A model generated the notes under the pieces. It worked only from the letters and a program-made list of their open reading frames with translations. It was not told the origin of the DNA and ran no database searches. Positions 1 through 24,095 of a stretch of 24,518 bases of DNA are shown here, in pieces. Position 1 is the stretch's first letter, and every line of letters begins with the position of its first letter. The translations under genes and the position numbers were made by a program. This stretch comes from Promethearchaeota archaeon. Its GTDB lineage: Archaea; Asgardarchaeota; Lokiarchaeia; Sigyniarchaeales; SOKP01. The stretch lies in the NCBI GenBank assembly GCA_048939015.1, contig JBHLPW010000067.1:1-24518 (forward strand). The letters are read 5' to 3'.

Positions 1-48
1 TTTTGAATAAATATTTATTTATTTTGAATAAATGTTTATTTATTTTGA
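1..48. repeat. 21-bp tandem repeat, ~2.3 copies visible, runs to the window edge
   Basis: ttttgaataaatatttattta (1-21), ttttgaataaatgtttattta (22-42), ttttga (43-48). The first unit contains the palindrome aataaatatttatt. Confidence 0.75.
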
Positions 49-375
49 CAATTGTATTAAAAAAGTAGAACCTGTATTCCTGCACTCAGATTCAACTAAA
101 ATATCTCCATTGTGAAGTTCAACTATCTTCTTTGAAATGTATAAACCTAAATCACCACCTTCAATATCTAAATATTCAAATTCTTGCCCTTATCTTTCTA
201 TTTTTCCAAATCTAGTGAAAATTTTATTTTTCTCATCGTTAGTGAAACTAATACCAGTATCAGTTACGAAAATTAAAACCCACTTTTCATTTTCTTGAAG
301 TCTAACTTCTACTTTCCCATTAGGGGGTGTATTCTTTATTGCATTTGATATTATATTTATTATTACTTGTTCTAT
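40..375 (-). pseudogene. Histidine kinase HATPase_c remnant with an in-frame stop
   Basis: Manual translation: IEQVIINIISNAIKNTPPNG...VTDTGISF...FTRFGKIER*GQEFEYLDIEGGDLGLYISKKIVELHNGDILVESECRNTGSTF. N, G1, F and G2 boxes are present. There is a TAA at 190-192, and the frame is closed upstream at 400-402, with no H-box. Confidence 0.85.
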
Positions 376-795
376 TGGTTTTAAGATATCTTTTATATAT
401 CATCCTCCTAATAAGAGAGATTTATAACTAAAAGCTATAACTAATGGAGATGATAGAAAAAAATATAATATATTGAGTTTCATGGAGTTTAAAAAAATTA
501 GAATTTGTGATAACCTAATTATTTAAATACAATTTTCTTTATTATCCAAAGCCAATAGAATCTAAAAGAATTATTAAACTCTAACTGGAGTCTTGTATTG
601 AAATCTTTTTATAAACATATTATTTTAATAATTAAAAGTACCTGTCCTATAATATGTCCTAATGTAAAAGATATAAATATGATAAGTTTTTTCTTCTTAT
701 CATTCTGAGATTTAGTATATTATACGAGGATGTTTATAAGAAATGGTAAAATGGTTTAGTAAAAATACAAATATCGATATGAGTGGTCAAAGATT

Positions 796-9322: not shown

Positions 9323-11398
9323 CTAAATTTTTTGAGCTATATTTGGACTTGAGATAACAACACCTAACTCATCTGTAATTTCATCATCAGCTAGACCAGT
9401 TCCAGCAAAGGCAAAGAGATTAAAACTAGTTACCAACAAAAGTGAAGAGTCCATTGAGAGGTATTTCGCGTGAGAGCCCGAAGGATTATCAGATATCTTT
9501 ATTTTGTTATGTGTTTGAGTCCTAATATCTATAATTGTGCTTCTTGTGTTAGTTAAAAGATCGTTTGGAATTGATTGCAACATCTCTTTACCCCATTTTA
9601 CTTCAACATCCACATTTTTCTCAAGAGCTTTATTCAGACTTGAAATTATAACGGGTCCTATAGCTTGCCTATACATCCGGTCCGTACCTAATTGAATGGA
9701 TTGAGTAGCCTGCTCTAAAACAGCTCTTAAAAATCTTCTATGATCCAGATTTTCTATTAAACATGCTGTAGATAGTCCTCTTAACTGCCTTATATTTGAT
9801 TTGTGTTTTTCAAATATAAATTTTAAATTCTTGATAATATCTTGATTCAAGGGCTCTTCAAGTAATAACTCTGTAGTCCTTTTCATTTCATTAATAGTTT
9901 CTTTTAAAATAGATAAGTTGTGTTGATTTTCGATTATGGAATCATTATCCTTTAAAAATTTTTCACCCATAGATCCCAACCATTTCGCTTCTATCCTAGT
10001 TGTAGATATTCTTTTAAGAGCATATTCCATAATTTCCCCTATTACCGTTCCGCCTTCTAATTTACAAAATATCTCATCTGGACTCGTTTCATCGTACCAA
10101 TAGCTACCTAAATTGCAGCTAGTAATCCAAGCACTTTTATTATCAATTAGGAGAAATTTACTATGAAATGGTTTAATACTACGGACAAATGAAATATTAT
10201 CATTTTGAAATATGGAGAACTTTGAAGTGATATCTGGGACTTGTTCCGCTAATGTCCCCCATAATAATATTACTTTAACATTTCTTGAAATTAGTTCTTC
10301 AAAAAGAGGTAACAGAGCTTCTATTCCTACCTCATTTATAAATGAAGTCCCTATTACAACTAATTCTTTTGATTGTTGGAGTTCATTACTTAATATTTTA
10401 AGAAGTTTATTACCTTTTACTTTAGAAATATCAACATCCACCATGCTAGTACCAATTTCCATCATAGCGGGAATAAGCTTATTTATAACCTCATAATCAA
10501 TTTTTTTCAAAATTTCTCGGATTTCTTGCTTTTTTAAAATCCTACTTAATTGTGTCCCACTTATTCTTGAAATGGAACTACCTAAGAAACTATTAAATGC
10601 ATGCCATTTTTTCATTATCGTACCCCAATCATATGTGAGTAAGAAATCTTCATCAGCAGGAGATAAGTCACTTATCGAATATGCATCTATTTGTGTAAGT
10701 GAACGTGACCAAGATTCTAATACCGAGGGTGGTATTGTCTCAGATTCAGGAAAGTCATACTCTATATCATTAATAACTTCTTTTTTAAGTGGAATGTAAA
10801 TATTCCTACTCTCAGTTAGATGTAAGTTATGAATCTTATTAACTCTACCCGCAATATTACCTTCTTCTATATATTGTCGAAGTGTCAATCTCGCAACCTT
10901 AACAAGAGTTTGAGTCCTATATTCTTTTATTGGAATAAAGTTCCTACGTGTGATTTGGACCTGCATATCTTCATCATAATCCGCTTCTTTAAGATCAAGT
11001 GGCGTTCTAAAATGAGGAAGACCATGTTCTAACGTCATAATTTGCCCAGAAACCATGTCTTGAATCCATTTTATTGCTTCAAAACGGGGAAATTCATCTT
11101 CTAAGAATTCCACAAGTCTCCCTCTATCAATTTCATCACTTACTTCAGGTGTATTAAAAATCTTAGAATTCTCTAAATCAACTCGTACCAATTCTTTATA
11201 CATCAGGTCAATAATCGCCTCCAAAACAATTCTTCTATCTAGCTGAAATGAGTTAATAACTGTCTCTAAATCGTTATTTAGGGTGACGAGATTTAGAATG
11301 TAAGGATGGAGTGGATTCATTTGTATCTTACTTCGAATCTCAACTCTTCCTTCGTACACGTTTATAGGGATAGTCAAGTATTTATCTTTCGATTTCAT
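9323..11398 (-). CDS. mkoB: PLD-family nuclease with two HKD motifs; Mokosh type I MkoB-like
   Basis: FHSKFLLID..AWITSCNL and SHAKYLSMD..LLVTSFNL; ATGA overlap with the upstream kinase-helicase. Confidence 0.8.
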   Translation of the reverse strand: MKSKDKYLTIPINVYEGRVEIRSKIQMNPLHPYILNLVTLNNDLETVINSFQLDRRIVLEAIIDLMYKELVRVDLENSKIFNTPEVSDEIDRGRLVEFLEDEFPRFEAIKWIQDMVSGQIMTLEHGLPHFRTPLDLKEADYDEDMQVQITRRNFIPIKEYRTQTLVKVARLTLRQYIEEGNIAGRVNKIHNLHLTESRNIYIPLKKEVINDIEYDFPESETIPPSVLESWSRSLTQIDAYSISDLSPADEDFLLTYDWGTIMKKWHAFNSFLGSSISRISGTQLSRILKKQEIREILKKIDYEVINKLIPAMMEIGTSMVDVDISKVKGNKLLKILSNELQQSKELVVIGTSFINEVGIEALLPLFEELISRNVKVILLWGTLAEQVPDITSKFSIFQNDNISFVRSIKPFHSKFLLIDNKSAWITSCNLGSYWYDETSPDEIFCKLEGGTVIGEIMEYALKRISTTRIEAKWLGSMGEKFLKDNDSIIENQHNLSILKETINEMKRTTELLLEEPLNQDIIKNLKFIFEKHKSNIRQLRGLSTACLIENLDHRRFLRAVLEQATQSIQLGTDRMYRQAIGPVIISSLNKALEKNVDVEVKWGKEMLQSIPNDLLTNTRSTIIDIRTQTHNKIKISDNPSGSHAKYLSMDSSLLLVTSFNLFAFAGTGLADDEITDELGVVISSPNIAQKI

Positions 11399-14300
11399 AG
11401 TAATCCCTCCATTTCACCTGCTTTTATATGATACCCCTTTTGTTTAATGAACTCAAATACTTCATTTACGGCTCTACAGTCCCGATTAGACTTAAGTCTC
11501 GTGAACTGTTTGGAACACCCTATAATGATCATTCTCTTTTTAACCCTTGAGAATAAAACATTTAATCGGGGGTCCTCTACAAGAAAACCAAGTGCACTTC
11601 TAATATTCGACTCTTTGTTATTCCTGACCAATGAAATGATAACAATATCTGCTTGCTTACCTTGATAAGCATCAATATTGTGGCATCTCGTCGATAAGTA
11701 ACGGGGATCGAAATCTCCAATAGAACTTGATGAGAGTGATTGAGATAGTCTTTCAGTCTGCGCATTATAAGGTGTTAAAAAGACTATATCTAAATCTGCC
11801 TTTTTTTTAATGAAGAACTTATTTATCTTAATTTTCCTCAATAATTTTATTATTGTTTGGATTTCTCCAACATTGAATATACTTCTAGAACTATCTCTTT
11901 CTTCAAGGAATTTTTTGGATGCATAAGGGGTATCTATCCAAATAAGTTCATTCTCTTCCAGAAATTTTGGAAAACTGAAAGGATCTCCCATTTCAGGTGA
12001 TTTTTTTACCTTAATAAATTTAGTTTCATAAAAAATTGAGGATATTAAATCAGATATTAATGGTGGTAAGCGTCTCTGTTCATTTAGTTGAATACAAGGA
12101 TTATAATCAACCTCACTAAAGTTGACTTTTACTTTCGCAAAATTATCATACAAATTTTCAAATAGCTTAATATTATCTAAACAGTAAGTCCTAAAATCGG
12201 CCGCATCATCTAAATTTCTCTCCTCTTTTTTTTGCTCTTCATCAAGGATGTCTGCTATTTCGTTAGCCATATCTTTATACTTATAAGGAGGCAATTGCTT
12301 GTGATCTCCTATTAACAACCATCTTTGTCCCATATTCATAGGAATTAATAATTCTGCAGGATAGGATTTAGCTGCTTCCTCTAAAATAATCCAATCATAA
12401 GGACTTGCTTCTTTTCCTAACCATTCAAGCTTAGAAGATGTAGAGGTTGAGAAAACTACATTGGCTACTTTTGAAATTTCATCAGTCCAGCGGGTTGAAG
12501 GGTTTGAGGAATTTTTCTCTATATCTTCTATAAATTCTTTTCCAATATTTCCAGGCAGAAGTACATTGGATTTATTTAATTCCAAGCACTCTCCTAAAAT
12601 CTTCTTGGTTTGGTTGTTATCTCTAAATTCCAATATTCTATCTGAAGCTTCGTATTCTTTTTCTCTTTCAGCACTCATTGCTCTGATAATTATTGGAGGT
12701 GTTATATTATTAGGTATCTTTTCAATAACATCTTCAAGTAGATGATTTAATGGATGATGATCCTTGGAAGAAATCAAAATGCGTGACCTAGGATCTTTTT
12801 TCAATATCATTGAAACAATTTCTGAGGCGATCCATGTTTTACCAGTCCCCGGAGGTCCTTGAACTAAGAACATAGGTATAGTGTTCAAAATATTTTTCAA
12901 AGTTAAATTTTCGATATTATAGTTAAGTCCCAAATAGAATGTATTGTACCTGGGATTCATAATTGAAGAAACCAAGAGGTTGTTATTTCGCAGATATTCT
13001 ATAGCCAAAGCTTTTCTATCATATAGTTTCAAGGAGAGATTCATTTCAAAAGGACGGATTTTTCCTGAGATAGGAAGTGCTTTATTTTTATTCTTAATTT
13101 GACGTTCAAGAGTACATCTCATCCTTTTTTTGTCAATGTTCTTGATAAACCATATTGATGAGTGATCCCATCCAGAAGAGGCAATATTTGATGCCGAAAG
13201 TTCAATCTCACCACCATTTTCAATTTTATATTTGAAGATCTTATCTAATACTTCCTTTTTCTTTTTTCCTTCTTTATTTTGTTTTTGTCTTTTATCTGAT
13301 TTTAAATCCATATTAATCAATGCATCTTGAAGTTGAGTAGCATTAAGGTTAAAGAAGTCTCTTCCATAACCAGTATAATCCTCTCTAGGGAGAAGACTTA
13401 TAATTGCCCTTTCCCGGTTGTTACCAGGGTCCCTCTCAACCTTAATTACTTTATGATAATTAAGAATATCCTTACCTGCAAGATTAATTTCAGCCTTATT
13501 TATAAGGTCTAAGCAATCTATAAAATTCTCCCTTTCATTTTTTCCTGTGGCTTTCTTCTTTATCTCTCTTTGTGCACTGTCCCAAAGTCTATTCCAAGGA
13601 GATCTGGGATCCCTTTCGTACTTGAATTGTTCAAATTTCAATCCCTCTTTAAGTATAGCTATAGGTGATTTACCTTTTATACGCTTTAATATTATATTCT
13701 GTTCCCTTGTATTCATGAAGAACAATGATAATACTTCTCGATGAAGCTTATCAGTCTGATTATCTAAATTAGCCTTCAAACTAAAAATTAAGTCCCTTTT
13801 ATTAATTAATACTAGTGGATGCCTTTCAAATCTTGTAGAATACACGTGGGAATTTTTAAAATCATCTGTTAACCATTTATCTGGATTTAGATAGACCTCA
13901 TCAAAATTATAACCCATACTTGTCAATTTTTTTAAGAAGATAGACCCCCTTTCATTATACCAATGAACCTTGGGTTTTTCTTCAATTATAATGTTTTTAG
14001 ACGAAAAACGTTCGAGGACATACATAACCTCTTGTCTAAGCTCGCTTATCGTCCTATAGCGCTTATTTGGTTCCTTGGAAATACATTTTAATATTAAATT
14101 AGATTCATCGTTGGTTAGCGTTTTTGATTCTTCAATGAAACTTAGGTTTTCATTGTATAATTCTAACCATTCTTTTTCATTTGCTGGTTCATTCTCTGGG
14201 AATTCCATGTTGAAAATAAAGCATAGAATCATCCCTAATGAAAAAATATCACCACCAAAAATATTAGGTATCAATAACACTGATTCTTCAATTATATTTT

Positions 14301-14913
14301 CTGGGGGTGTAAATAGAGAAACATTCTTTTGCTTAGCACGATATTCGTTGGGTAAAAAGTCTAAATTATATAAGTATAAGCTCCAAGTAATCCCGCCCAA
14401 TACGAATTTTTTTTCATCGCTATCTTCAGAATAATAGACAGAACCAGGATTAATATTTCTATGAAGTAATTTCATATTATGAAGTGCATCCACACCATCT
14501 AAAAGAGTGATAAATAGATTCCAAACTTCTTTTCTTCCCTCAAGCTGGTCATTAGTGAAGAACCAAGGTAAATCACTACTACTAATCCACTCTTCAAGAG
14601 TTTTGCCATAATTACGTGAGATAATATATAAAGAATCTGAATCATCATCTAAAAAAGCATCTATTAATTCCAAAAACATATCTCCTCCCGATGGACCTCT
14701 CAACTTTCTTGCTATTCGTATCTCCCTTTCCCATAGTCTAATCGCAAGCTCTCTTGCATTACTTTTTTTAGGTAATCTCAACTTTTTTATTAGCACATCT
14801 TGATGATGTAGACTATCGTAGCCCGTATAATTGCTCACTTCGGTGTTAGTAGTTTTTAAATACTTTGAGTTAATCAGGTCTCCCAATTCATATCGATTTT
14901 GTAAGATATCCAT
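11395..14913 (-). CDS. mkoA: Ser/Thr (pseudo)kinase fused to Upf1-like SF1 helicase; Mokosh type I MkoA-like
   Basis: Kinase: VLIKKL, WEREIR, LHRNINP, TPPE, DIFSLG, RY. Helicase: VQGPPGTGKT, ILEEAAK, LIGDHKQLPP, QRR, LTPYNAQ, IDAYQGKQAD, RLNVLFSR. Confidence 0.85.
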   Translation of the reverse strand: MDILQNRYELGDLINSKYLKTTNTEVSNYTGYDSLHHQDVLIKKLRLPKKSNARELAIRLWEREIRIARKLRGPSGGDMFLELIDAFLDDDSDSLYIISRNYGKTLEEWISSSDLPWFFTNDQLEGRKEVWNLFITLLDGVDALHNMKLLHRNINPGSVYYSEDSDEKKFVLGGITWSLYLYNLDFLPNEYRAKQKNVSLFTPPENIIEESVLLIPNIFGGDIFSLGMILCFIFNMEFPENEPANEKEWLELYNENLSFIEESKTLTNDESNLILKCISKEPNKRYRTISELRQEVMYVLERFSSKNIIIEEKPKVHWYNERGSIFLKKLTSMGYNFDEVYLNPDKWLTDDFKNSHVYSTRFERHPLVLINKRDLIFSLKANLDNQTDKLHREVLSLFFMNTREQNIILKRIKGKSPIAILKEGLKFEQFKYERDPRSPWNRLWDSAQREIKKKATGKNERENFIDCLDLINKAEINLAGKDILNYHKVIKVERDPGNNRERAIISLLPREDYTGYGRDFFNLNATQLQDALINMDLKSDKRQKQNKEGKKKKEVLDKIFKYKIENGGEIELSASNIASSGWDHSSIWFIKNIDKKRMRCTLERQIKNKNKALPISGKIRPFEMNLSLKLYDRKALAIEYLRNNNLLVSSIMNPRYNTFYLGLNYNIENLTLKNILNTIPMFLVQGPPGTGKTWIASEIVSMILKKDPRSRILISSKDHHPLNHLLEDVIEKIPNNITPPIIIRAMSAEREKEYEASDRILEFRDNNQTKKILGECLELNKSNVLLPGNIGKEFIEDIEKNSSNPSTRWTDEISKVANVVFSTSTSSKLEWLGKEASPYDWIILEEAAKSYPAELLIPMNMGQRWLLIGDHKQLPPYKYKDMANEIADILDEEQKKEERNLDDAADFRTYCLDNIKLFENLYDNFAKVKVNFSEVDYNPCIQLNEQRRLPPLISDLISSIFYETKFIKVKKSPEMGDPFSFPKFLEENELIWIDTPYASKKFLEERDSSRSIFNVGEIQTIIKLLRKIKINKFFIKKKADLDIVFLTPYNAQTERLSQSLSSSSIGDFDPRYLSTRCHNIDAYQGKQADIVIISLVRNNKESNIRSALGFLVEDPRLNVLFSRVKKRMIIIGCSKQFTRLKSNRDCRAVNEVFEFIKQKGYHIKAGEMEGLL

Positions 14914-15114: not shown

Positions 15115-15609
15115 TCAAATGAAAATAAATTCAGTAATTCTTTTTTGTTGAAATTGATTTTTATACATATTATAATTCTTTTTTGATTTTTTTCGAGCTA
15201 ACATCATCGCATTATAGGAGTTTCTACGTTTAATTTCTCTAATCATTGAATTAATCATAAGGTTAGGATCATTTTCTAAAAATAAGAGATTAGAAATAAT
15301 ATCTTCCCATGAAAATGTGAAAGTTTTAGAATTTAATGACCTTTCAATTATTCGGTTTAATAATTTTAGTAATAGTACAAATTTTCTTAAAAAATCTAAG
15401 TTCTCTTCGTTAAATCTAGGAAAATCATAGCAGATTAACCTTAATTGCCGCTCAATTTTAAGGATCTCGTTTTTTAAATCATCAGTATCTTTTTTTCCAA
15501 ATTTCTTTATAAAAGGGGCCATTATTTCGGGTGATTCAAACCGACTACGTGGGTATGCTTCTTTATTAATTTTTCCCTCAGCCATTTTATCAATTCTAGT
15601 TTGGAACAT
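15115..15609 (-). CDS. Hypothetical protein with C-terminal PIP-box-like motif
   Basis: Ends in QKRITEFIFI (QxxIxxFI). Confidence 0.7.
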   Translation of the reverse strand: MFQTRIDKMAEGKINKEAYPRSRFESPEIMAPFIKKFGKKDTDDLKNEILKIERQLRLICYDFPRFNEENLDFLRKFVLLLKLLNRIIERSLNSKTFTFSWEDIISNLLFLENDPNLMINSMIREIKRRNSYNAMMLARKKSKKNYNMYKNQFQQKRITEFIFI

Positions 15610-15676: not shown

Positions 15677-18349
15677 TCAATCATTAAAATTATCATATTT
15701 TTTTTTTATATAATTCATTAAATCTTGCTTTTCCTCTAAGCTTAATTGATTAGTTTGAATATATGAATAAATTGATGCATTTTGTTCTTTTGTTAATGAA
15801 TCAATTATTCTATAGATATTAACACCTTCTAAATCTGGTTTATAGGAATATATTAGTTTTTGAATATTCCTGACAATTGTATCATCTGTAGAACCTAAGA
15901 ATCTTATTAAATTATTGAGAATAACATCATTACAATAGTCCATTTCAATGAGAAAGCTGGTTAAAGCTGAAATTATTGAATTCTCTTCAATTCTAGAAAT
16001 CTTTTCCAAGGATTCTAATATTAATGGCAAATTTTCTTCTTTATAATTAATTTCTAATGAAGAAATCAAACCAGGAATATTTTGAAAAGTGTAATGAAAA
16101 ATGGAATCCTTTATGTTCTTATTAAAATTAAGCATTAAGGTTTTTTCTTCATGCTTTAATTCTTGGGTTGTTTTATTGCTTTTAATTATATTAGAAATTT
16201 TTCTTATATATCCAAGAGAATCTTGACGATTCAATAAGTTTGTAACATCAGAAATTCTATTTCTAAGAGTAACTTCAGTTATGAGAAAATTTTTAGCTAG
16301 TTTTGATTGTGTAACTCCCATACCTATCTGTTTATAAATAATGTATAAAAGACCTGCGATATAACCATCTTTTATTCCTATATTTGAAAGACCTTTATTA
16401 AAGTCGATTAAAAATGGTCTTAATTTTCTACAAACTTCTTCATCATATAGTTTTCGCAAATTCATTAAGTCTTTAAAGAAAAATATTAAATCTCCTAATG
16501 GAGAATAATTTGGATTTATTTTTTCTTTATAAGGTTTATAGATTACCTTTAATGTTTTTAGGTCTTTTTTTATACCAAAATAAAGTTCCAATAGAGAATA
16601 AGATACCATTTTTCCACTATTAATACAGCTTCTTAGGTGATCATCAATAAAGATTTGAATACATTGTTCAAAAATCTTATTGACATCTCTCCCTTTTAAT
16701 AAATTAGTACCAAGAATAAAGTCTAAAATTTGATCATATAATTCTAGTGAGAGAATACTTTTAAAAAATGAAGTTCTATTTCTAAAACGCCTTTTCTTAT
16801 CTTTCCAAATAAACTCTTCTATATCAAACTCTGGTATTTCATCTTCTTCTATTGTCGACTTGCGATATTTAATGTTTTTAATAATTTCTTTACATTGTTC
16901 TTCCCATATAACTCTCGCATCAGCACAATTTTTACATTTTTTTTGAAAAGCATTATGATTTTCGCAGACTGGTGTACCAAAAATCATTTTTACATGAGTA
17001 TAAATTGAGATTGGGGATCTTTTGAGTTTTCTCGCGATTTCTAAATAAGTAAGTTTAGAATAGACATTCTTGATTATAAACAAATCATCCTCTTTTGTAA
17101 AGAACCGAATTTTCCGTTTTCTCAGTCTTAATAAGGATTTAGGTAAACCAGCTTCAGTTATAGCTACCATTTGACCAAAATCCATTAAATTCAAATCTTT
17201 TAACCTTTGGAGAGACTCTAAAGCATCTGGATTAGGGTTATGTAATTCTAATATAGTTAAATTATGAGTTTTTAATGTACTTATATGTTCTCTCTTAGTC
17301 CAAATATAACATTGTTCTCCGTTATAAATAATTCCAAAATGTCTATTTCCTATATATTTAATTGTACTATTTTCATTGCAATATACTTTCTCAGAATTTT
17401 CTACTGGAACTATTTTTATAGAAATTTCTGAAAGTGTAGGAGAAATAACAAAATCTGAAAGATTTCCTCCATCATAGATAACTTTACATCTATTAAATTG
17501 CGGTTCAAACCAGAATAACTCAGGAGAGAAAGGTAGTTTTAAGGAGGACAGAGTTCTATATTTTTTAAAAGAAGGATAAATATGAAATTCTTCTTGTGTA
17601 ACTACATATAACGCATCGTTTATGCAACAAACATCTTTTGGAATGCCCTCAAACTTCTTCAGATTGGTAATTGATAAAGGCAATTCTTTATTAATCTTAT
17701 TTCGAGGAAAACTAATATTTGCTAATCCTAAATTTTCATTGAAAGAAAAAAGATCTAAATTATCAGCAGTACTATTCCAAAAAGCTATTGAATCTTCAAA
17801 CTCAATAATTGAATTTTCAGGTTGGATTTTTGAGAATAATTCAATATTCAACAATATATAAAATCTATCTTGTTCTTTTACTATAAGACAAGCAAAATCC
17901 TTTGTCCTTTTCGTAAAGTACGCTACAATATCTAATGGGTCAAAAAGTTCAAAGAAATCTAATGAATCTTCTTCTGTACTGCCAAAATCTATTTTACCCA
18001 ATCTCTTAGATAACTTAATGGAATTTTCGTTTTGAATGGCACTCCAAATATCACCTTTTTGTGATATTATAATCAATTCATTTCTAACACGACCGGGTAG
18101 TACAAATTTTATTAAAACTTCTATCTTTAATGCAGAAGTTAATTCTTGATTCTCTTCAACCTTGCAAGAAAATTTAATTTCTGGTTCTAAAGGATCAAAA
18201 ATATATTTAAATATTTGGGAAGCAGTGATACCCTCTTTTATTGATAAAAAGATGATAATATTGTTATATCTATATGGAGATGTAAGAATTATTCCATTCT
18301 CAGTTTTAAAAAAGGTTTCAGTGAATTTTTTTGAATAGATTTTTGTCAA
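15677..18349 (-). CDS. 890-aa multidomain protein: beta-rich N-terminus, Myb-like HTH, Cys/His knuckle, TFB C-terminal HTH-like region, helical tail
   Basis: FFTKEDDLFIIKNVYSKLTYLEIARKLKRSPISIYTH; CENH-x6-CKNC; IAGLLYII...VTQSKLAKNFLITEVTLRNRI. TTG start with GGAG upstream. Confidence 0.75.
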   Translation of the reverse strand: MTKIYSKKFTETFFKTENGIILTSPYRYNNIIIFLSIKEGITASQIFKYIFDPLEPEIKFSCKVEENQELTSALKIEVLIKFVLPGRVRNELIIISQKGDIWSAIQNENSIKLSKRLGKIDFGSTEEDSLDFFELFDPLDIVAYFTKRTKDFACLIVKEQDRFYILLNIELFSKIQPENSIIEFEDSIAFWNSTADNLDLFSFNENLGLANISFPRNKINKELPLSITNLKKFEGIPKDVCCINDALYVVTQEEFHIYPSFKKYRTLSSLKLPFSPELFWFEPQFNRCKVIYDGGNLSDFVISPTLSEISIKIVPVENSEKVYCNENSTIKYIGNRHFGIIYNGEQCYIWTKREHISTLKTHNLTILELHNPNPDALESLQRLKDLNLMDFGQMVAITEAGLPKSLLRLRKRKIRFFTKEDDLFIIKNVYSKLTYLEIARKLKRSPISIYTHVKMIFGTPVCENHNAFQKKCKNCADARVIWEEQCKEIIKNIKYRKSTIEEDEIPEFDIEEFIWKDKKRRFRNRTSFFKSILSLELYDQILDFILGTNLLKGRDVNKIFEQCIQIFIDDHLRSCINSGKMVSYSLLELYFGIKKDLKTLKVIYKPYKEKINPNYSPLGDLIFFFKDLMNLRKLYDEEVCRKLRPFLIDFNKGLSNIGIKDGYIAGLLYIIYKQIGMGVTQSKLAKNFLITEVTLRNRISDVTNLLNRQDSLGYIRKISNIIKSNKTTQELKHEEKTLMLNFNKNIKDSIFHYTFQNIPGLISSLEINYKEENLPLILESLEKISRIEENSIISALTSFLIEMDYCNDVILNNLIRFLGSTDDTIVRNIQKLIYSYKPDLEGVNIYRIIDSLTKEQNASIYSYIQTNQLSLEEKQDLMNYIKKKYDNFND

Positions 18350-18393: not shown

Positions 18394-18422
18394 TTAATCT
18401 CTTTAATATAGAAAGAGATTAA
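18394..18422. terminator. Perfect 11-bp hairpin directly downstream of the SMC-like gene
   Basis: ttaatctcttt (18394-18404) / aaagagattaa (18412-18422), 7-nt loop. It could also be an operator for the next gene. Confidence 0.5.
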
Positions 18423-18426
18423 ATTC

Positions 18427-20310
18427 TTATGCAAATGTTGAAATTATATGGTTTTGAGCTAAATTCTCTTGCTTACCCTTATAAGGTTTATGTCTCGCAA
18501 CAATTACATAATCTGTTTTATTTGAAATATAATTTAAAATATCCTGAAATCTAGTATCGTCCATTTCTGTTGTTACTTCATCAACCAAGAAAAAAGGTTC
18601 ATCAGGGAGAACCATTTGTTTTACAACCCATGTGATTATCAATGTAATTAAAGATTTTTCAGCACCACTAAGTTTTTCTAATGTTGTATAAACATTATTT
18701 GCTCTTTGAATTTCTAAGAAAAGTTTGTTTTCTTTTTTATCAAATACTATCTTTTTCAGTTTTGCTAATTTTAGTAATTCAAAAGAAGCCATCAAAGCAT
18801 CGTTGATTTGTTTGAATGTTTCGTATGTTAGGTGTTGAAATCTCTCAGAATAATATTTATGAATCGCCTCTGCTCTTTTTACATATCCTTCCGCTTTTAA
18901 GTATCTTAATTGATATTCACTTGACATTTCAATTTCTTCTTCAAGTTTATTCATTAGTTTATTTTTACCATTTAATTCTCCTTGAAGTTTAAAAATTTCA
19001 TTTTGAAGTGGTATCTCTTCAGCTAAAACTTCTTGTATATCTAATAATTCTTTATTTTTTGACTCAATCTCATCCGCTAATTGTTTTCTTCGATTCTTCT
19101 TGTCTGGTAATGTTTCTCTTTTCTTTTTTATATCTTTATCCTTATTAATTTGATCTTTATTTAAGCTCTCTCTATTAGTTTTTAAAAAATTAGTTAAATC
19201 TCTTAATTCATCCTCTATTTCATTCATCTCCAAAGAAATTTCATGTTCTTTTGCTTTCAAACTTTTTACTTGCGCTTCTAGTTTTTTTACTTCGGCTCTT
19301 CCTTTAGCAACAAGGTCTTTATAGTGAACGGGGTCGAGTTTCTGGTGACATTTTGGACAAGTCTCTCGATTAATTAGTTCTTCATATTCTTTTAAATCCT
19401 TTCTTTCTGATGTCAAATTTTGTTGTGCGATTAATCTAAGATCTTTAGTTTTATCTAAATCCACCTCTAGCTTATCTCGCCTTTTCTCATTTTTTCGTAA
19501 TTTCTCTTGCATTAAAGGCAAATTCGCATCATAAGTATCAATTCTTTTCTTTATATCTTCTAATTCTCTTTTTAAATTCTCTATAGCTTCTTCTTCTTTA
19601 AAAATCACATCAGATAATTTTATCTTTTTATTTGTTAAATTTTTGATTAATTCACGTAATTTATCAATTTTATCCTTTTTCTCAGAATGCTCTTTCATTG
19701 ATAACTTATATTCTTCAGAATCTAATATTGATTCAATTTTTTCACTTAATTTTTCAGTTTCTTTTTGTAAGTTATTTATTTCTTCCCGATTTTGTGATAC
19801 ATCTTTACTCACTTTTTTCTTTAAATCATCTCTCGCAGTTTTATAGTCTGTAAGGATATTAGTTGATATTTCTAAAAACAATTCATATTTATGAGCTTCT
19901 GTAACTTTATAAAACCAAGAAGAAATAAAATCTTCATCATCGTTTATTATTCCGTGAAAAAGATCTGATTTTGCTCTTATAAAACTTAATTCTTCAGAAG
20001 GGAATTTAAAAATTTCATCATCTACATTAGAGTATGTTATAATAACTTTATCACCTTTTCTCTGAATTTGAACTTCATACTCTGTATCATCAACATTAAT
20101 TTTAACATAACCATTTATTTCTTTTTCAGTAAGGTAATTATTTAAATCATCTTGAGATATATTTTTATTTGCTATAGCTAAATGGAATGCACGTAAGAGA
20201 CTAGATTTTCCTGAACCATTAGGAGCATGCAATATGGATAAACCATCTTGTATTGTGAATTTAAATTGTCCTCTTAATCCACCAATATTTTCCCCTTCAA
20301 TATTAATCAT
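18427..20310 (-). CDS. Short SMC/Rad50-like ABC ATPase with zinc hook (Sph/ClsN-like archaeal SMC-related protein)
   Basis: ENIGGL start motif, Walker A APNGSGKS, long coiled coils, central CPKC, signature LSGAEK, Walker B/D-loop FLVDEVTTEMD, H-loop VARH. Confidence 0.9.
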   Translation of the reverse strand: MINIEGENIGGLRGQFKFTIQDGLSILHAPNGSGKSSLLRAFHLAIANKNISQDDLNNYLTEKEINGYVKINVDDTEYEVQIQRKGDKVIITYSNVDDEIFKFPSEELSFIRAKSDLFHGIINDDEDFISSWFYKVTEAHKYELFLEISTNILTDYKTARDDLKKKVSKDVSQNREEINNLQKETEKLSEKIESILDSEEYKLSMKEHSEKKDKIDKLRELIKNLTNKKIKLSDVIFKEEEAIENLKRELEDIKKRIDTYDANLPLMQEKLRKNEKRRDKLEVDLDKTKDLRLIAQQNLTSERKDLKEYEELINRETCPKCHQKLDPVHYKDLVAKGRAEVKKLEAQVKSLKAKEHEISLEMNEIEDELRDLTNFLKTNRESLNKDQINKDKDIKKKRETLPDKKNRRKQLADEIESKNKELLDIQEVLAEEIPLQNEIFKLQGELNGKNKLMNKLEEEIEMSSEYQLRYLKAEGYVKRAEAIHKYYSERFQHLTYETFKQINDALMASFELLKLAKLKKIVFDKKENKLFLEIQRANNVYTTLEKLSGAEKSLITLIITWVVKQMVLPDEPFFLVDEVTTEMDDTRFQDILNYISNKTDYVIVARHKPYKGKQENLAQNHIISTFA

Positions 20311-20425
20311 TTACTATTGCCTCTTTAATTTTTTTTTCTATAGCTTTATTTGGTCTTTTGCTGGAATTATAAATATCGATTAATTCCTCATCCAATTTTT
20401 TAAAATCAATCTTTTTTTCTTCCAT
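20303..20425 (-). CDS. 40-aa microprotein (not in the ORF track)
   Basis: MEEKKIDFKKLDEELIDIYNSSKRPNKAIEKKIKEAIVND. It fills the gap, starts 10 nt after the upstream stop, and overlaps the SMC start by 8 nt. Confidence 0.6.
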   Translation of the reverse strand: MEEKKIDFKKLDEELIDIYNSSKRPNKAIEKKIKEAIVND

Positions 20426-20435
20426 AATTTTCACT

Positions 20436-20912
20436 TTACCTCTTTATTAAATTTTTTAATTCAAAAAATAGATTAGAATTTATATCTTTAAGTTCTAACT
20501 CATCTATATTTAATAGATTCTTAAATTTATTTTCAAATTCATCAAAAAATTCATAATATTCATCATCATAATCTCTGATTTCTTTTGGAATTTCAAACTT
20601 AATCATATCTTTAATAACTCTCAATTCTATAAAACTTTCAAATTCATGTAAACATAAAAGGACTCCAAAAATTCCTTTGATAGTATTTTTCAATTCGATA
20701 AATAATATATCTTTATCTTTTAGATTCCTCTGATGTGGATCATAAGTAGCTCTACGGATAATAATTGCATCTGAACCTATTAGTTTATCGATTCTATCTG
20801 CAAATTTTCTTATCTTTTCATCTTGATATTTAGGAAATACAATATGAAATCCATCATAACTCATAAATTCATCTAACTTCAAAGAGATCACTCGGATTCT
20901 GCATCTATCCAT
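20436..20912 (-). CDS. Hypothetical alpha/beta protein
   Basis: 158 aa; overlaps the AAA ATPase end by 25 nt. Confidence 0.8.
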   Translation of the reverse strand: MDRCRIRVISLKLDEFMSYDGFHIVFPKYQDEKIRKFADRIDKLIGSDAIIIRRATYDPHQRNLKDKDILFIELKNTIKGIFGVLLCLHEFESFIELRVIKDMIKFEIPKEIRDYDDEYYEFFDEFENKFKNLLNIDELELKDINSNLFFELKNLIKR

Positions 20913-21631
20913 TCTAAATAAGTAAATATCATTTCTTTCTCAACATCTCTAAATGATAAATTCTTTATAATACCATCTCTTATTTTTTCCTTAATACGAT
21001 TTAAGACAATTTCAATATAATCATTATCCATTTTCAACTCTTTAATCCTAGATTCAATTTTCATTTTTGCTGTCTCTATGTTAATATATGGTACTTCAAA
21101 ATCAACCAATCGACTAATCACGGCATCATCTAATAAATCTCTCCTATTAGTTGTCATAATCACCCCTACTTTATCAGTCTCGAGCTTATCTAGCTCAGTA
21201 AAAAGAACATTTAAATGACCTAGATACCACGCATCTAATTTTTGATATGATCTTGAGGGAAACATTCCATCGACATCATCCATGACGATTATAAAGAAAT
21301 TTCCATTGCTTTTCGCTATTTTCATAGCAGATTCAAAATTATCTCTGATAATATCTTCGGTTTCACCATATTTTGCCTTCGCAATATCTGCTAAATTAAG
21401 TAATACATAAAGTTGATCATCAGGAAAATGTTCTAAATGAGTTTTAGCAACAACATCAGATATGACCCATTTTGCAATTGTTGATTTACCCGTCCCCGGT
21501 GGTCCGTGTAAAATAAATCCTTTAATTCCATCCGAAATTTCTCTTTCATTCTGCACTAAAAAAGTTTTTACAATTATTTGACTGATTTGAGTGTGGAGAT
21601 CTCCAATAAGAATAGGTCTTTTTAATCTCAT
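20888..21631 (-). CDS. Minimal classical-clade AAA+ ATPase
   Basis: Walker A LHGPPGTGKS, pore loop AKYGET, Walker B IIVMDDVD, NVLFTELD, sensor 1/SRH TTNRRDLLDDAVISR. Confidence 0.9.
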   Translation of the reverse strand: MRLKRPILIGDLHTQISQIIVKTFLVQNEREISDGIKGFILHGPPGTGKSTIAKWVISDVVAKTHLEHFPDDQLYVLLNLADIAKAKYGETEDIIRDNFESAMKIAKSNGNFFIIVMDDVDGMFPSRSYQKLDAWYLGHLNVLFTELDKLETDKVGVIMTTNRRDLLDDAVISRLVDFEVPYINIETAKMKIESRIKELKMDNDYIEIVLNRIKEKIRDGIIKNLSFRDVEKEMIFTYLEWIDAESE

Positions 21632-21651
21632 AATAGGTCTTCTCTTAAATT

Positions 21652-21662
21652 AAAAAAAAAAA
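21652..21662 (-). terminator. T11 tract (archaeal-type U-rich terminator candidate)
   Basis: 11 A on the plus strand, just downstream of the stop of 21666..22745. Confidence 0.4.
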
Positions 21663-21665
21663 GGT

Positions 21666-22745
21666 TTAATGTTCTTTTTCTTTCACTTTTTCTTTAATCT
21701 TATCTTTTGTTTTAATTAAAGCTTTCTCCATCGCTTCTGCAACTCCCGCATCAATTAAAAACTCCATTTTTCCAGTATCGGGATTAACACCTAGTTCTAT
21801 AAAAAAATCTTGAGCTTTTACTAATGCATTAATTGCATGCTGCCAATTTCTATAAGAAATCTTATCGCTTTGTTTAGCAATCCCATCTGAACTAAGCCAT
21901 ACTCCAACGAAATCCTCTTTTCTTTCGATATATTCTTCTTTTTTCTCTTTTGGGATATCATGATCATTTAAATGGATTAAAGCATCTTCCAAAGTATCAT
22001 ATTTTAAATTACAAGCATTTCCTTCTTCATCTACGAATTTACAGACAAATCCTCCGGTAGATAAGGTTTTGCGTTTTTTACATGACTCTAAGATATTTCC
22101 ATCTTTGTCGCAGCATTGTTTCATAAAAAGTTTCATAATAGCATTGCGATTTTTATCAAATGTTGGACGATCTAATTCAGTTGATAATCCTACAAGTGAT
22201 TCAGCACTCTTTATTACATTAGCAATGTTGTAATACCAGGAATCTAAATCTTCTCGTGCCTTTGCATCTGCAAATTTACTAATTAAAACATTCATTTTAT
22301 CACCCCATTGAGCGACTTCAGTTCCTTCTTCATCCTTAACATCCCCTATAATTCCAATCTCTTGAAATCTTTTTATATGTGGCTCAAGAGGATCTTTATA
22401 ATGCCGATTCCACAGTTTCTTTATCTCTGTTATATTAATCGGTTTAATATTCCATAAATATCTTAAAAGAAGTTTAAATAAATTTTGTTCTTTTTGATTG
22501 GCTTTATATGAATAAAAAGCATTTAGCCGAGCAAATACGTCAGCATCATTTTCATCCTTAAATTCGGAAATATTGTCGAATAAAAAATGGATCATTTGAC
22601 AATTTTCGCAAATTTTCTTCTCCTTTCCCAATCTGGTTTTGTATTCAAGAAGTCTTCTTTTTTGCATACCACATGAGGCACATTTTTCTATTGGCAAAGT
22701 AATTTCATCTTCTTGTTTTTGATTAATTTCTATAATTTCTGTCAT
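21666..22745 (-). CDS. Zinc-finger protein with putative tandem winged-helix domains
   Basis: CASC...CENC; WH-like EQNLFKLLLRYL...INITEIKKLW...LEPHIKRFQEIGII plus hairpin; C2H2-like C-x9-C...HLNDH; second WH-like WQHAINALVKAQDFF plus hairpin. Confidence applies mainly to the CDS. Confidence 0.75.
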   Translation of the reverse strand: MTEIIEINQKQEDEITLPIEKCASCGMQKRRLLEYKTRLGKEKKICENCQMIHFLFDNISEFKDENDADVFARLNAFYSYKANQKEQNLFKLLLRYLWNIKPINITEIKKLWNRHYKDPLEPHIKRFQEIGIIGDVKDEEGTEVAQWGDKMNVLISKFADAKAREDLDSWYYNIANVIKSAESLVGLSTELDRPTFDKNRNAIMKLFMKQCCDKDGNILESCKKRKTLSTGGFVCKFVDEEGNACNLKYDTLEDALIHLNDHDIPKEKKEEYIERKEDFVGVWLSSDGIAKQSDKISYRNWQHAINALVKAQDFFIELGVNPDTGKMEFLIDAGVAEAMEKALIKTKDKIKEKVKEKEH

Positions 22746-22790: not shown

Positions 22791-22880
22791 TGTTTTTACA
22801 TTTGTTAGTGTCTTTACGATATGTATGTGTAATGACACTACCAATATGTAGTTACTATCATTACTTATATTTAATATTAT
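22791..22880 (-). promoter_or_regulatory. Promoter/operator candidate, copy 1
   Basis: tgtttttacat (22791), gtaatgacactac (22829), tgtagttactatca (22847-22860), then a TATA-like AT box. Same order as at 24125-24201. Confidence 0.55.
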
Positions 22881-22945: not shown

Positions 22946-23341
22946 CTATTTATCCTCAAGATTTTTTAATTCATCAAATAAATCTATTAGATCTGATCTA
23001 TATTGGTAATCTCTTTCAACCCAAAAATGACTTTCATCAAAATCATCAAAAAAAGAGTTGTAACAATCAGGATTATCACCAATATAAAAATCCTTTTCAC
23101 ATTCTATTTCAATAGGAGAATCTTCTTCTTCTTTTGCTTTATTATACATTTTTTCAAAACATTTCATAGCACATGCTGGACATTTGTTACATCTTAAAGG
23201 ATAATCATTCACTCCAATATAATCTATTCGATAATTTCCATCTTCTTTTCCAGTTGTCAATGCTAATCCTAAAAACTCCTCATTACAATCGTGGCAGGTT
23301 TTTATTCTCTTTTCTAATAATTCTATAATTTCATTTTTCAT
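22946..23341 (-). CDS. Cys-rich protein, paralogue of 23523..24095
   Basis: KNEIIELL..CHDC..FLG...YPLRCNKCPACAMKC. Confidence 0.8.
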   Translation of the reverse strand: MKNEIIELLEKRIKTCHDCNEEFLGLALTTGKEDGNYRIDYIGVNDYPLRCNKCPACAMKCFEKMYNKAKEEEDSPIEIECEKDFYIGDNPDCYNSFFDDFDESHFWVERDYQYRSDLIDLFDELKNLEDK

Positions 23342-23522: not shown

Positions 23523-24095
23523 TTAATTCACCTCATTTTTAATCTTATATTCAATTAATTCAAAGAGATTTATCATTTTACCACCTAAAAAATCTTCAGG
23601 TTTATCCCAAGGTTTTGGTTTTATTAATAAATCATGAGCTTTATATTCCTCATCCCATTCAGGAAAAAAATAAAATTTATCCATATATGGTCTGCAAGGT
23701 ACATTCTCCATAAAGGAATCTATAAAATCTATAATTTCTTCATCTGTGAATTTTTTTTTATCATTTTCTTCAATATCATAAAATTCACATATAGTTAAGT
23801 CATCACAAGGAATCTTACCTGTTTTTCTTACATTTTTAACTAAATTATTATATTTAAGATCAGATTTATCTAATCGTTCAATATTTCCTACATAACAGTT
23901 TTTAGCACATTCTGGACATTTTCCACAGCCACAGGGATATGGTTTAATCTCAATATTTACAGCTCCAGGATGAAGACCATCAGGATTAGAGTTATCAATA
24001 TCAATAGTCACTCCTAATAGTAATTTTCCACAATCAAGACATTTTTTATCGTATCTTCTAATCAATTCAATAATAGTATTCTTCTTATCTTCCAT
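23523..24095 (-). CDS. Cys-rich protein, paralogue of 22946..23341
   Basis: KNTIIELI..CLDC..LLG...YPCGCGKCPECAKNC. Confidence 0.8.
   Translation of the reverse strand: MEDKKNTIIELIRRYDKKCLDCGKLLLGVTIDIDNSNPDGLHPGAVNIEIKPYPCGCGKCPECAKNCYVGNIERLDKSDLKYNNLVKNVRKTGKIPCDDLTICEFYDIEENDKKKFTDEEIIDFIDSFMENVPCRPYMDKFYFFPEWDEEYKAHDLLIKPKPWDKPEDFLGGKMINLFELIEYKIKNEVN

Follow-up and report, generated by a model that had tools for sequence, protein, structure and literature searches.

The ASRP family of ATPases, which resemble SMC (structural maintenance of chromosomes) proteins, includes coalescin (ClsN) and the Sph proteins. A study of the family reported no consensus in the flanking genes (Yoshinaga 2022, PMC9389158), clsN has been proposed to derive from an extrachromosomal element (PMC11344861), and the partners, loaders and unloaders of ClsN have been named as unresolved (Bell 2022, PMC9764264). 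Here we describe a five-gene cassette of an Asgard archaeon (Promethearchaeota) that encodes, in this order, a zinc/tandem-winged-helix protein of 359 amino acids (aa), a 247-aa AAA+ ATPase, a 158-aa ferredoxin-fold protein, a microprotein and a 627-aa SMC-like ATPase. It lies in a stretch of 24,518 nucleotides (nt), referred to as the window, which is the entire 24.5-kb contig (C68) from a 4.86-Mb genome. An interpretation of the bare DNA (the sequence-only reading) had proposed an undescribed SMC system. No PADLOC system is matched in full, and the cassette and its partners are undescribed in the papers found, subscription papers not being covered.

Comparison with described systems

The closest relatives of the cassette ATPase are ClsN and Sph, with which it shares a length of about 600–650 aa, a split ABC head, a zinc hook, the best NCBIfam match and the position in the tree. 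The cassette differs from them in being a fixed operon with four partners, whereas ClsN keeps only its ferredoxin-fold neighbour and Sph is found with rdfA. Lamassu (LmuABC) is likewise located on mobile islands and pairs its small SMC-like ATPase, which has a zinc hook, with a small accessory subunit, but the cassette lacks an LmuA effector, keeps the Walker B glutamate and has an AAA+ and a tandem-winged-helix gene in addition. Neither a nuclease, protease or hydrolase domain nor a PADLOC match to LmuA was found in the cassette. For LmuC, which has eight fold types, there was no PADLOC match in the cassette and none was listed in the fold searches with the 158-aa protein. The ASRP score (245 bits) is far above that for LmuB (62 bits), the two values coming from different libraries.

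Rad50-Mre11/SbcCD has the zinc hook and the head architecture in common with the cassette, but no metallophosphoesterase corresponding to Mre11/SbcD is present among the cassette genes, and ASRPs branch apart from Rad50. The tandem-winged-helix neighbour recalls the KITE subunits of Wadjet and Smc-ScpAB. Here, however, a zinc hook takes the place of the hinge, no kleisin is recognisable, and no match to JetA, JetD or ScpA was obtained among the cassette genes. The two predicted winged helices bear zinc fingers and match KITEs no better than they match other winged helices: Nse, JetB-complex and ScpB chains appeared among the generic matches of the 359-aa model, with Z values of 4.8–5.8. Type III CBASS with HORMA-TRIP13/Pch2 also pairs a stand-alone AAA+ protein with a small protein, and TRIP13 is the best PADLOC model for the 247-aa ATPase (E 5e-15). 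In the cassette, however, the small protein is predicted to be ferredoxin-like, no cyclase is present, and the search against solved structures favours VAT/Cdc48. HORMA was ruled out as an identity of the 158-aa protein by folding and fold searches. By analogy, the cassette may work like a Rad50- or Lamassu-type clamp.

The SMC-like ATPase is a member of the ASRP family

The 627-aa protein carries a Walker A motif at residues 29–36, a CPKC zinc hook at residues 318–321 and thus near the middle of the protein, an LSGAE signature and a Walker B motif in which the glutamate is kept. With Walker A at the amino terminus, signature and Walker B at the carboxy terminus and a coiled coil in between, it has the layout that characterises ASRPs, and both zinc-hook cysteines are found in all 72 ASRP rows of the alignment. 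The ASRP model NF045487 matches over the full length with 244.7 bits, below the cut-off of 300 but well ahead of the next family (72 bits); other cassette ASRPs score above the cut-off (310, 307 and 345 bits).

In a tree of head domains the cassette SMC groups with ClsN and Sph, apart from Rad50. The non-Rad50 side received an SH-aLRT support of 99, and the 79-row clade that holds ClsN and Sph a support of 91. This was a quick tree with long branches, from which canonical SMC, RecN and LmuB were left out; of the head phylogeny suggested in the sequence-only reading, it covers the comparison with ClsN, Sph and Rad50. On the grounds of architecture, best family match and tree position, the cassette SMC is a member of the known ASRP (coalescin/Sph) family and not a new SMC class; the sequence-only reading had named relatives of this family merely for comparison in a tree. 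It is important to note that the sister group of ClsN, comprising sequences from Zestosphaera and Methanodesulfokora, carries the full cassette (SH-aLRT 99, with a long-branch warning), which agrees with an extrachromosomal origin of clsN. The genome has another, longer Rad50-type gene on contig C88.

The constant ASRP partner is a ferredoxin-fold gene

The model of the 158-aa protein (pLDDT 82) shows the ferredoxin-like order of strands and helices plus extra helices, and all top fold matches are ferredoxin folds. A gene of this type adjoins 72 of 78 ASRPs, among them ASRPs at fixed chromosomal sites where AAA+ and winged-helix genes are lacking. Hence the constant partner of ASRPs is the ferredoxin-fold gene, not the AAA+ gene.

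A profile of the partner built without Sulfolobales rows was run on 408 open reading frames (ORFs) of eight Sulfolobales loci. In all eight, the clsN-adjacent gene ranked first to eighth among the 408 ORFs (E 2e-6 to 3e-4). This 108-aa gene abuts clsN in convergent orientation, and a remote homologue of the partner abuts clsN in 15 of 15 Sulfolobales sampled. With Sulfolobales rows added to the profile, the partner family was detected in 17 of 401 Thermoproteota genomes; 16 of these 17 are the very genomes with an ASRP over the cut-off, and each time the partner lies at most 1.3 kb from it. By position, length and orientation the clsN neighbour is M164_0055 (arCOG05886, SiRe_0054, Saci_0045). 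In a transposon screen of S. islandicus, M164_0055 was depleted (log2 fold change −4.71, adjusted P 0.018) and placed in the class 'unassigned', like clsN (−3.28), while the flanking genes on both sides were non-essential (PMC6249222). In 52 of 52 Sulfolobales, arCOG05886 has been classed as an essential gene that is uncharacterised (PMC9425974). Judging from the sequence comparisons, the cassette ferredoxin-fold protein is probably a remote homologue of the clsN-adjacent arCOG05886. No paper linking arCOG05886 to ClsN was found, within the same literature coverage.

In 17 of 22 genomes of one Asgard family, an ASRP occupies a constant chromosomal position, accompanied by no cassette genes other than those for the ferredoxin-fold protein and the microprotein (L289–L294, L297), and the cassette AAA was not found in five genomes of this family. 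This near-universal chromosomal locus is a candidate for a second domestication like that of coalescin.

Several further contigs contain the partner or ASRP-like genes in other settings. A ferredoxin-fold homologue (L323:2774-3127) is encoded without a visible ASRP on a contig of 3.3 kb that ends just upstream, and an IMG/VR contig (L170:10031-11008) has a truncated cassette AAA+ gene together with an intact partner of the Dehalococcoidia type. In L299, L301 and L303, ASRP, ferredoxin-fold partner and microprotein, without AAA+, are accompanied by PAPS-reductase/4Fe-4S and Dnd-associated methyltransferase-like genes; possibly these loci are DNA-modification systems in which an ASRP substitutes for DndD. 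Loki genomes contain a deep ASRP-like clade (L302, L304–L306) that is found with an IteA-like AAA+ gene, two paralogues of about 150 aa flanking the SMC gene, and TGT/ArcS-like or PAPS-reductase genes. Short ASRP-like genes (about 500 aa) of Thermoproteota (L321, L322) stand beside a small helical gene and sugar-nucleotide enzymes.

Conservation and spread of the cassette

The order winged helix, AAA+, ferredoxin-fold, (microprotein), ASRP is kept in 54 non-redundant loci of Loki, Hel and other Asgard groups, Thermoproteota (TACK) and Dehalococcoidia. The genes thus co-occur in fixed order in distant lineages, as the proposal of a conserved system implied. One Dehalococcoidia copy sits on a 3.3-Mb chromosome, so that ASRP cassettes are also present in genuine chromosomes of bacteria. 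In a second layout the winged-helix genes, one or two in number, are shorter, often with a histone gene in front and an AbrB gene behind. AAA and ASRP distances are correlated (Mantel rho 0.735, 0 of 500 permutations), which speaks for joint inheritance rather than for interaction. All five genes, the microprotein included, are under purifying selection when compared with relatives (dN/dS 0.06–0.33).

The distribution is patchy, the cassette being present in 5 of 154 genomes of the order. The genome analysed here has a second, divergent copy of the whole cassette (28–38% identity; contig C82, 18561-22792; L001:6562-10793), which lies among Cdc6-, RadA- and RPA-like genes and is followed by a stand-alone TFIIB-repeat gene. 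The flanks of relatives with 87% identity are unrelated to those in the window. More generally, the neighbours are mixed and comprise defence genes, integrases, Cdc6 and housekeeping genes, according to a scan without control. Searches of viral contigs yielded no such ASRP; on plasmids, Sph genes were found and the cassette AAA was not.

The AAA+ ATPase, the winged-helix protein and the microprotein

Among solved structures the 247-aa ATPase, whose Walker A is intact, is nearest to VAT/Cdc48 domains in a profile search. The Walker A lysine, the sensor-1 asparagine, one arginine finger, the lid arginine and a tryptophan in pore loop 2 are invariant in the 54 AAA+ members. Walker B, however, reads DD in all 54, not DE as in the classical Cdc48/VAT unfoldases, and the first aromatic residue of pore loop 1 is replaced by R, L or K. 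A DD Walker B is also present in DnaA, a slow switch. Because of the DD motif and the missing first pore aromatic, the AAA+ protein is, judging from sequence and by analogy, more likely an active but slow remodeller or switch than a translocating motor. The same features argue against a fast translocating form of the AAA+ motor proposed in the sequence-only reading. The combination of a zinc-hook SMC-like ATPase with a Cdc48-clade AAA+ protein is in no paper found. The AAA+ gene is an optional module, as it is present neither in the coalescin locus nor in the fixed ASRP locus of the Asgard family mentioned above. With this query, the cassette AAA was not found in five Sulfolobales and five family-f16 genomes, where only matches of Cdc48, PAN or Vps4 size were obtained. 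The DD-type AAA+ family also occurs beside KaiC-like genes in other contigs (L152, L162).

The 359-aa protein was modelled (pLDDT 87) with an N-terminal C4 finger, a first winged helix, a second winged helix with an inserted C2H2 finger, and a basic C-terminal helix. Its fold matches are generic winged helices (Z 5–6.5), and it is a remote homologue of the 240–290-aa gene in the other layout (hhalign 89%, E 2e-6). For both this and the 158-aa protein, Atlas feature searches gave no usable match and fold searches no specific relative beyond the generic winged-helix or ferredoxin classes. The microprotein forms an amphipathic helix-loop-helix, has 32 positional homologues (dN/dS 0.09–0.32) and gave no meaningful match against solved structures; we presume a likeness to the helix-loop-helix of Mre11. 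A weak match to DUF7855, a family present in Haloferax volcanii, was seen in 9 of 65 cassette-protein members (best E 3e-4).

A phased array of boxes precedes the cassette

The repeated motif noticed upstream of the cassette is real and consists of TGT-N4-ACA boxes 18–19 nt apart, two of them exact and two with one mismatch. The window contains 11 exact boxes against 3.8 expected. Exact boxes lie 5' of 12 of 12 cassettes of the Loki/Hel type, even where the AAA is no more than about 35% identical, compared with none of five TACK-like cassettes and one of 27 cassettes of the other layout (1/32 combined). The genome has seven non-coding box clusters, two of which precede the two cassette copies, while a third lies 1.3 kb upstream on the same contig. 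From its position and conservation in sequence, the array is probably an operator of the cassette.

Two paralogous Cys-rich genes are located upstream (window 22946-23341 and 23523-24095). The second is also preceded by TGT-N4-ACA boxes (24125, 24144), and homologues of the Cys-rich genes stand before the cassette in loci L093 and L096.

Possible function of the cassette

Our best explanation, to which we give a little less than an even chance, is that the cassette encodes a mobile, non-cutting complex of genomic islands that compacts or silences DNA and that was the source of the domesticated coalescin. Because no nuclease, protease, NADase or toxin is encoded by the cassette and coalescin is the one well-studied relative, compaction or silencing appears the most likely activity. 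Two ASRP chains would join via the zinc hook and the ATP-gated heads and clamp or bridge DNA in the manner of Rad50-type proteins. The ferredoxin-fold protein, together with the microprotein where present, would be an obligatory small subunit of the clamp, in the place that Mre11 or LmuC holds in related machines. DNA binding and the choice of the clamp site would fall to the zinc/tandem-winged-helix protein, joined by a histone in the other layout, and the AAA+ ring could serve as a slow, ATP-dependent switch for loading, releasing or resetting either the clamp or the winged-helix protein. Island DNA or incoming DNA would thereby be compacted and transcriptionally quieted, or else stably retained, as known for coalescin. 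Coalescin and the fixed ASRP of the Asgard family would then be domesticated forms that kept the core of ASRP and ferredoxin-fold partner and lost the winged-helix and AAA+ genes.

A further-reaching version is that the cassette represents the ancestral, complete coalescin machine, with clamp, small subunits, winged-helix targeting and AAA+ loader/unloader, spread by mobile DNA, and that arCOG05886 is the missing subunit of Sulfolobus coalescin. We consider this version possible, though rather doubtful. If true, SMC-like complexes would include a class that an AAA+ switch operates, and the question on ClsN partners would be answered. The cassette gives named candidates for such partners, one of which has a probable counterpart, reported essential, in the genetically tractable Sulfolobus and would therefore be the first testable ClsN partner. 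It also supports the proposal that coalescin came from a mobile element.

Several points weigh against this explanation. The tree that supports the ClsN placement is the quick, long-branched one, and the AAA served as bait in gathering the locus sample. Homology to arCOG05886 is remote (hhalign 72–81%), the clsN neighbour is the top genome-wide match in only two of five genomes, and the reciprocal search is weak (4 of the top 7). As Sulfolobales are one lineage, their 15 genomes count as one event. Haloarchaeal Sph proteins adjoin rdfA and act on cell shape, so functions differ within the ASRP family. The DD-type AAA+ family of the cassette is also present at loci that have no SMC, where it stands next to cupin-like genes (soil Alphaproteobacteria, Binatia and Chloroflexota; L031–L085, e.g. 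L036, L061, L044), and defence genes are common among the cassette neighbours. Finally, the roles proposed for the cassette proteins come from sequence and models.

The main alternative is a Lamassu-like defence in which the ASRP core senses foreign DNA and frees an effector that arrests the cell. The effector could be the AAA+ protein (unfolding a host target), the winged-helix protein or a variable downstream gene, here that of the 890-aa TFIIB-like protein, which would block transcription. LmuB is matched in size and zinc hook (PADLOC LmuB, E 1e-17; PMC10586767), the patchy spread is typical of defence, and the neighbours include methyltransferases, BrxP, ShosA, Cas1, AbiEii and Schlafen as well as Mokosh in the window. 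Moreover, related ASRPs adjoin DndC-like and TGT-like DNA-modification genes. We nevertheless regard defence as less likely, since the layouts share no recognisable effector, the scan of neighbours was made without a control and housekeeping genes make up many of the flanks, Mokosh is missing beside the closest relatives, and the descendant forms are fixed and, in Sulfolobus, essential. An aid to replication, repair or segregation of an element, which would tether or protect the ends of element DNA during excision, replication or partition, seems improbable. Although the second genome copy lies among Cdc6-, RadA- and RPA-like genes, integrases flank some copies, and a winged-helix protein, an ATPase and repeated boxes together resemble partition logic, those neighbours are not conserved, and the searches of viral contigs for such an ASRP and of plasmids for the cassette AAA were negative, one viral contig having only a broken AAA and the partner. 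That the winged-helix and AAA+ proteins are instead a separate regulatory pair, a repressor bound to the boxes and its remodeller, which only governs how the ASRP core is expressed without ever becoming part of it, is very improbable: the boxes would suit a winged-helix dimer, both genes are lost together in domesticated forms and the AAA+ family is active in other settings, but box-less layouts that have an AbrB regulator instead still contain winged-helix homologues, in some cases two of them and a histone.

Locus structure and neighbouring genes

As the sequence-only reading stated, the five genes are co-oriented, all on the minus strand (Table 1). The intergenic spacings in gene order are 34, −25, 1 and −8 nt. 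The overlaps of 25 and 8 nt and the gap of 34 nt given before were thus found, whereas the gap of 10 nt requires the ATG start of the microprotein, and the 25-nt overlap may be absent if the 158-aa gene starts at residue 11, as in an Atlas record and one close relative. The assembly is sound, since a second sample of the same study has near-identical DNA over the cassette.

Table 1. Features of the cassette and its immediate surroundings in the window.
Feature	Position	Strand
359-aa zinc/tandem-winged-helix protein	21666-22745	minus
247-aa single-domain AAA+ ATPase	20888-21631	minus
158-aa (or 148-aa) ferredoxin-like protein with C-terminal helices	20436-20912	minus
Helix-loop-helix microprotein, 43 aa from GTG, 40 aa from ATG at 20425	20303-20434	minus
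627-aa ASRP-family SMC-like ATPase	18427-20310	minus
A/U-rich 11-bp hairpin	18394-18422	minus
890-aa protein, lineage-specific sixth gene	15677-18349	minus
164-aa helical protein, lineage-specific	15115-15609	minus
Four phased TGT-N4-ACA boxes, probable operator	22791-22856 (starts 22791, 22809, 22828, 22847)	

The bounds drawn earlier for the cassette left out two downstream genes, for 890 and 164 aa, which travel along in the closest relatives, that is, in the window's own lineage. The 890-aa protein has an internal helix-turn-helix, a Cys/His cluster and a TFIIB-like cyclin repeat. The 164-aa gene, downstream here, is found divergently upstream in a sister lineage (hhalign 95.5%). The hairpin thought to close the cassette is present, with an 11-bp A/U stem. 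As a terminator it was ruled out by a weak z of −1.5, the absence of a U run and poor conservation in relatives.

The Mokosh pair that had been placed about 3.5 kb away is indeed encoded 3.5 kb downstream (window 9323-14913), with an MkoA kinase-helicase (E 4e-169) and an MkoB with a PLD domain (E 1e-44). The association is not conserved: none of the 87%-identical relatives has Mokosh next to the cassette, which rules it out as a cassette partner, and its GC content of 0.32–0.34, higher than that of the flanks, suggests a separate insertion. The contig as a whole has an island-like character, with many small orphan genes, several of which are common to other low-GC contigs of the genome. Its start (window 1-400) belongs to a family of repeats whose many copies in the genome have diverged (65–71% identity).

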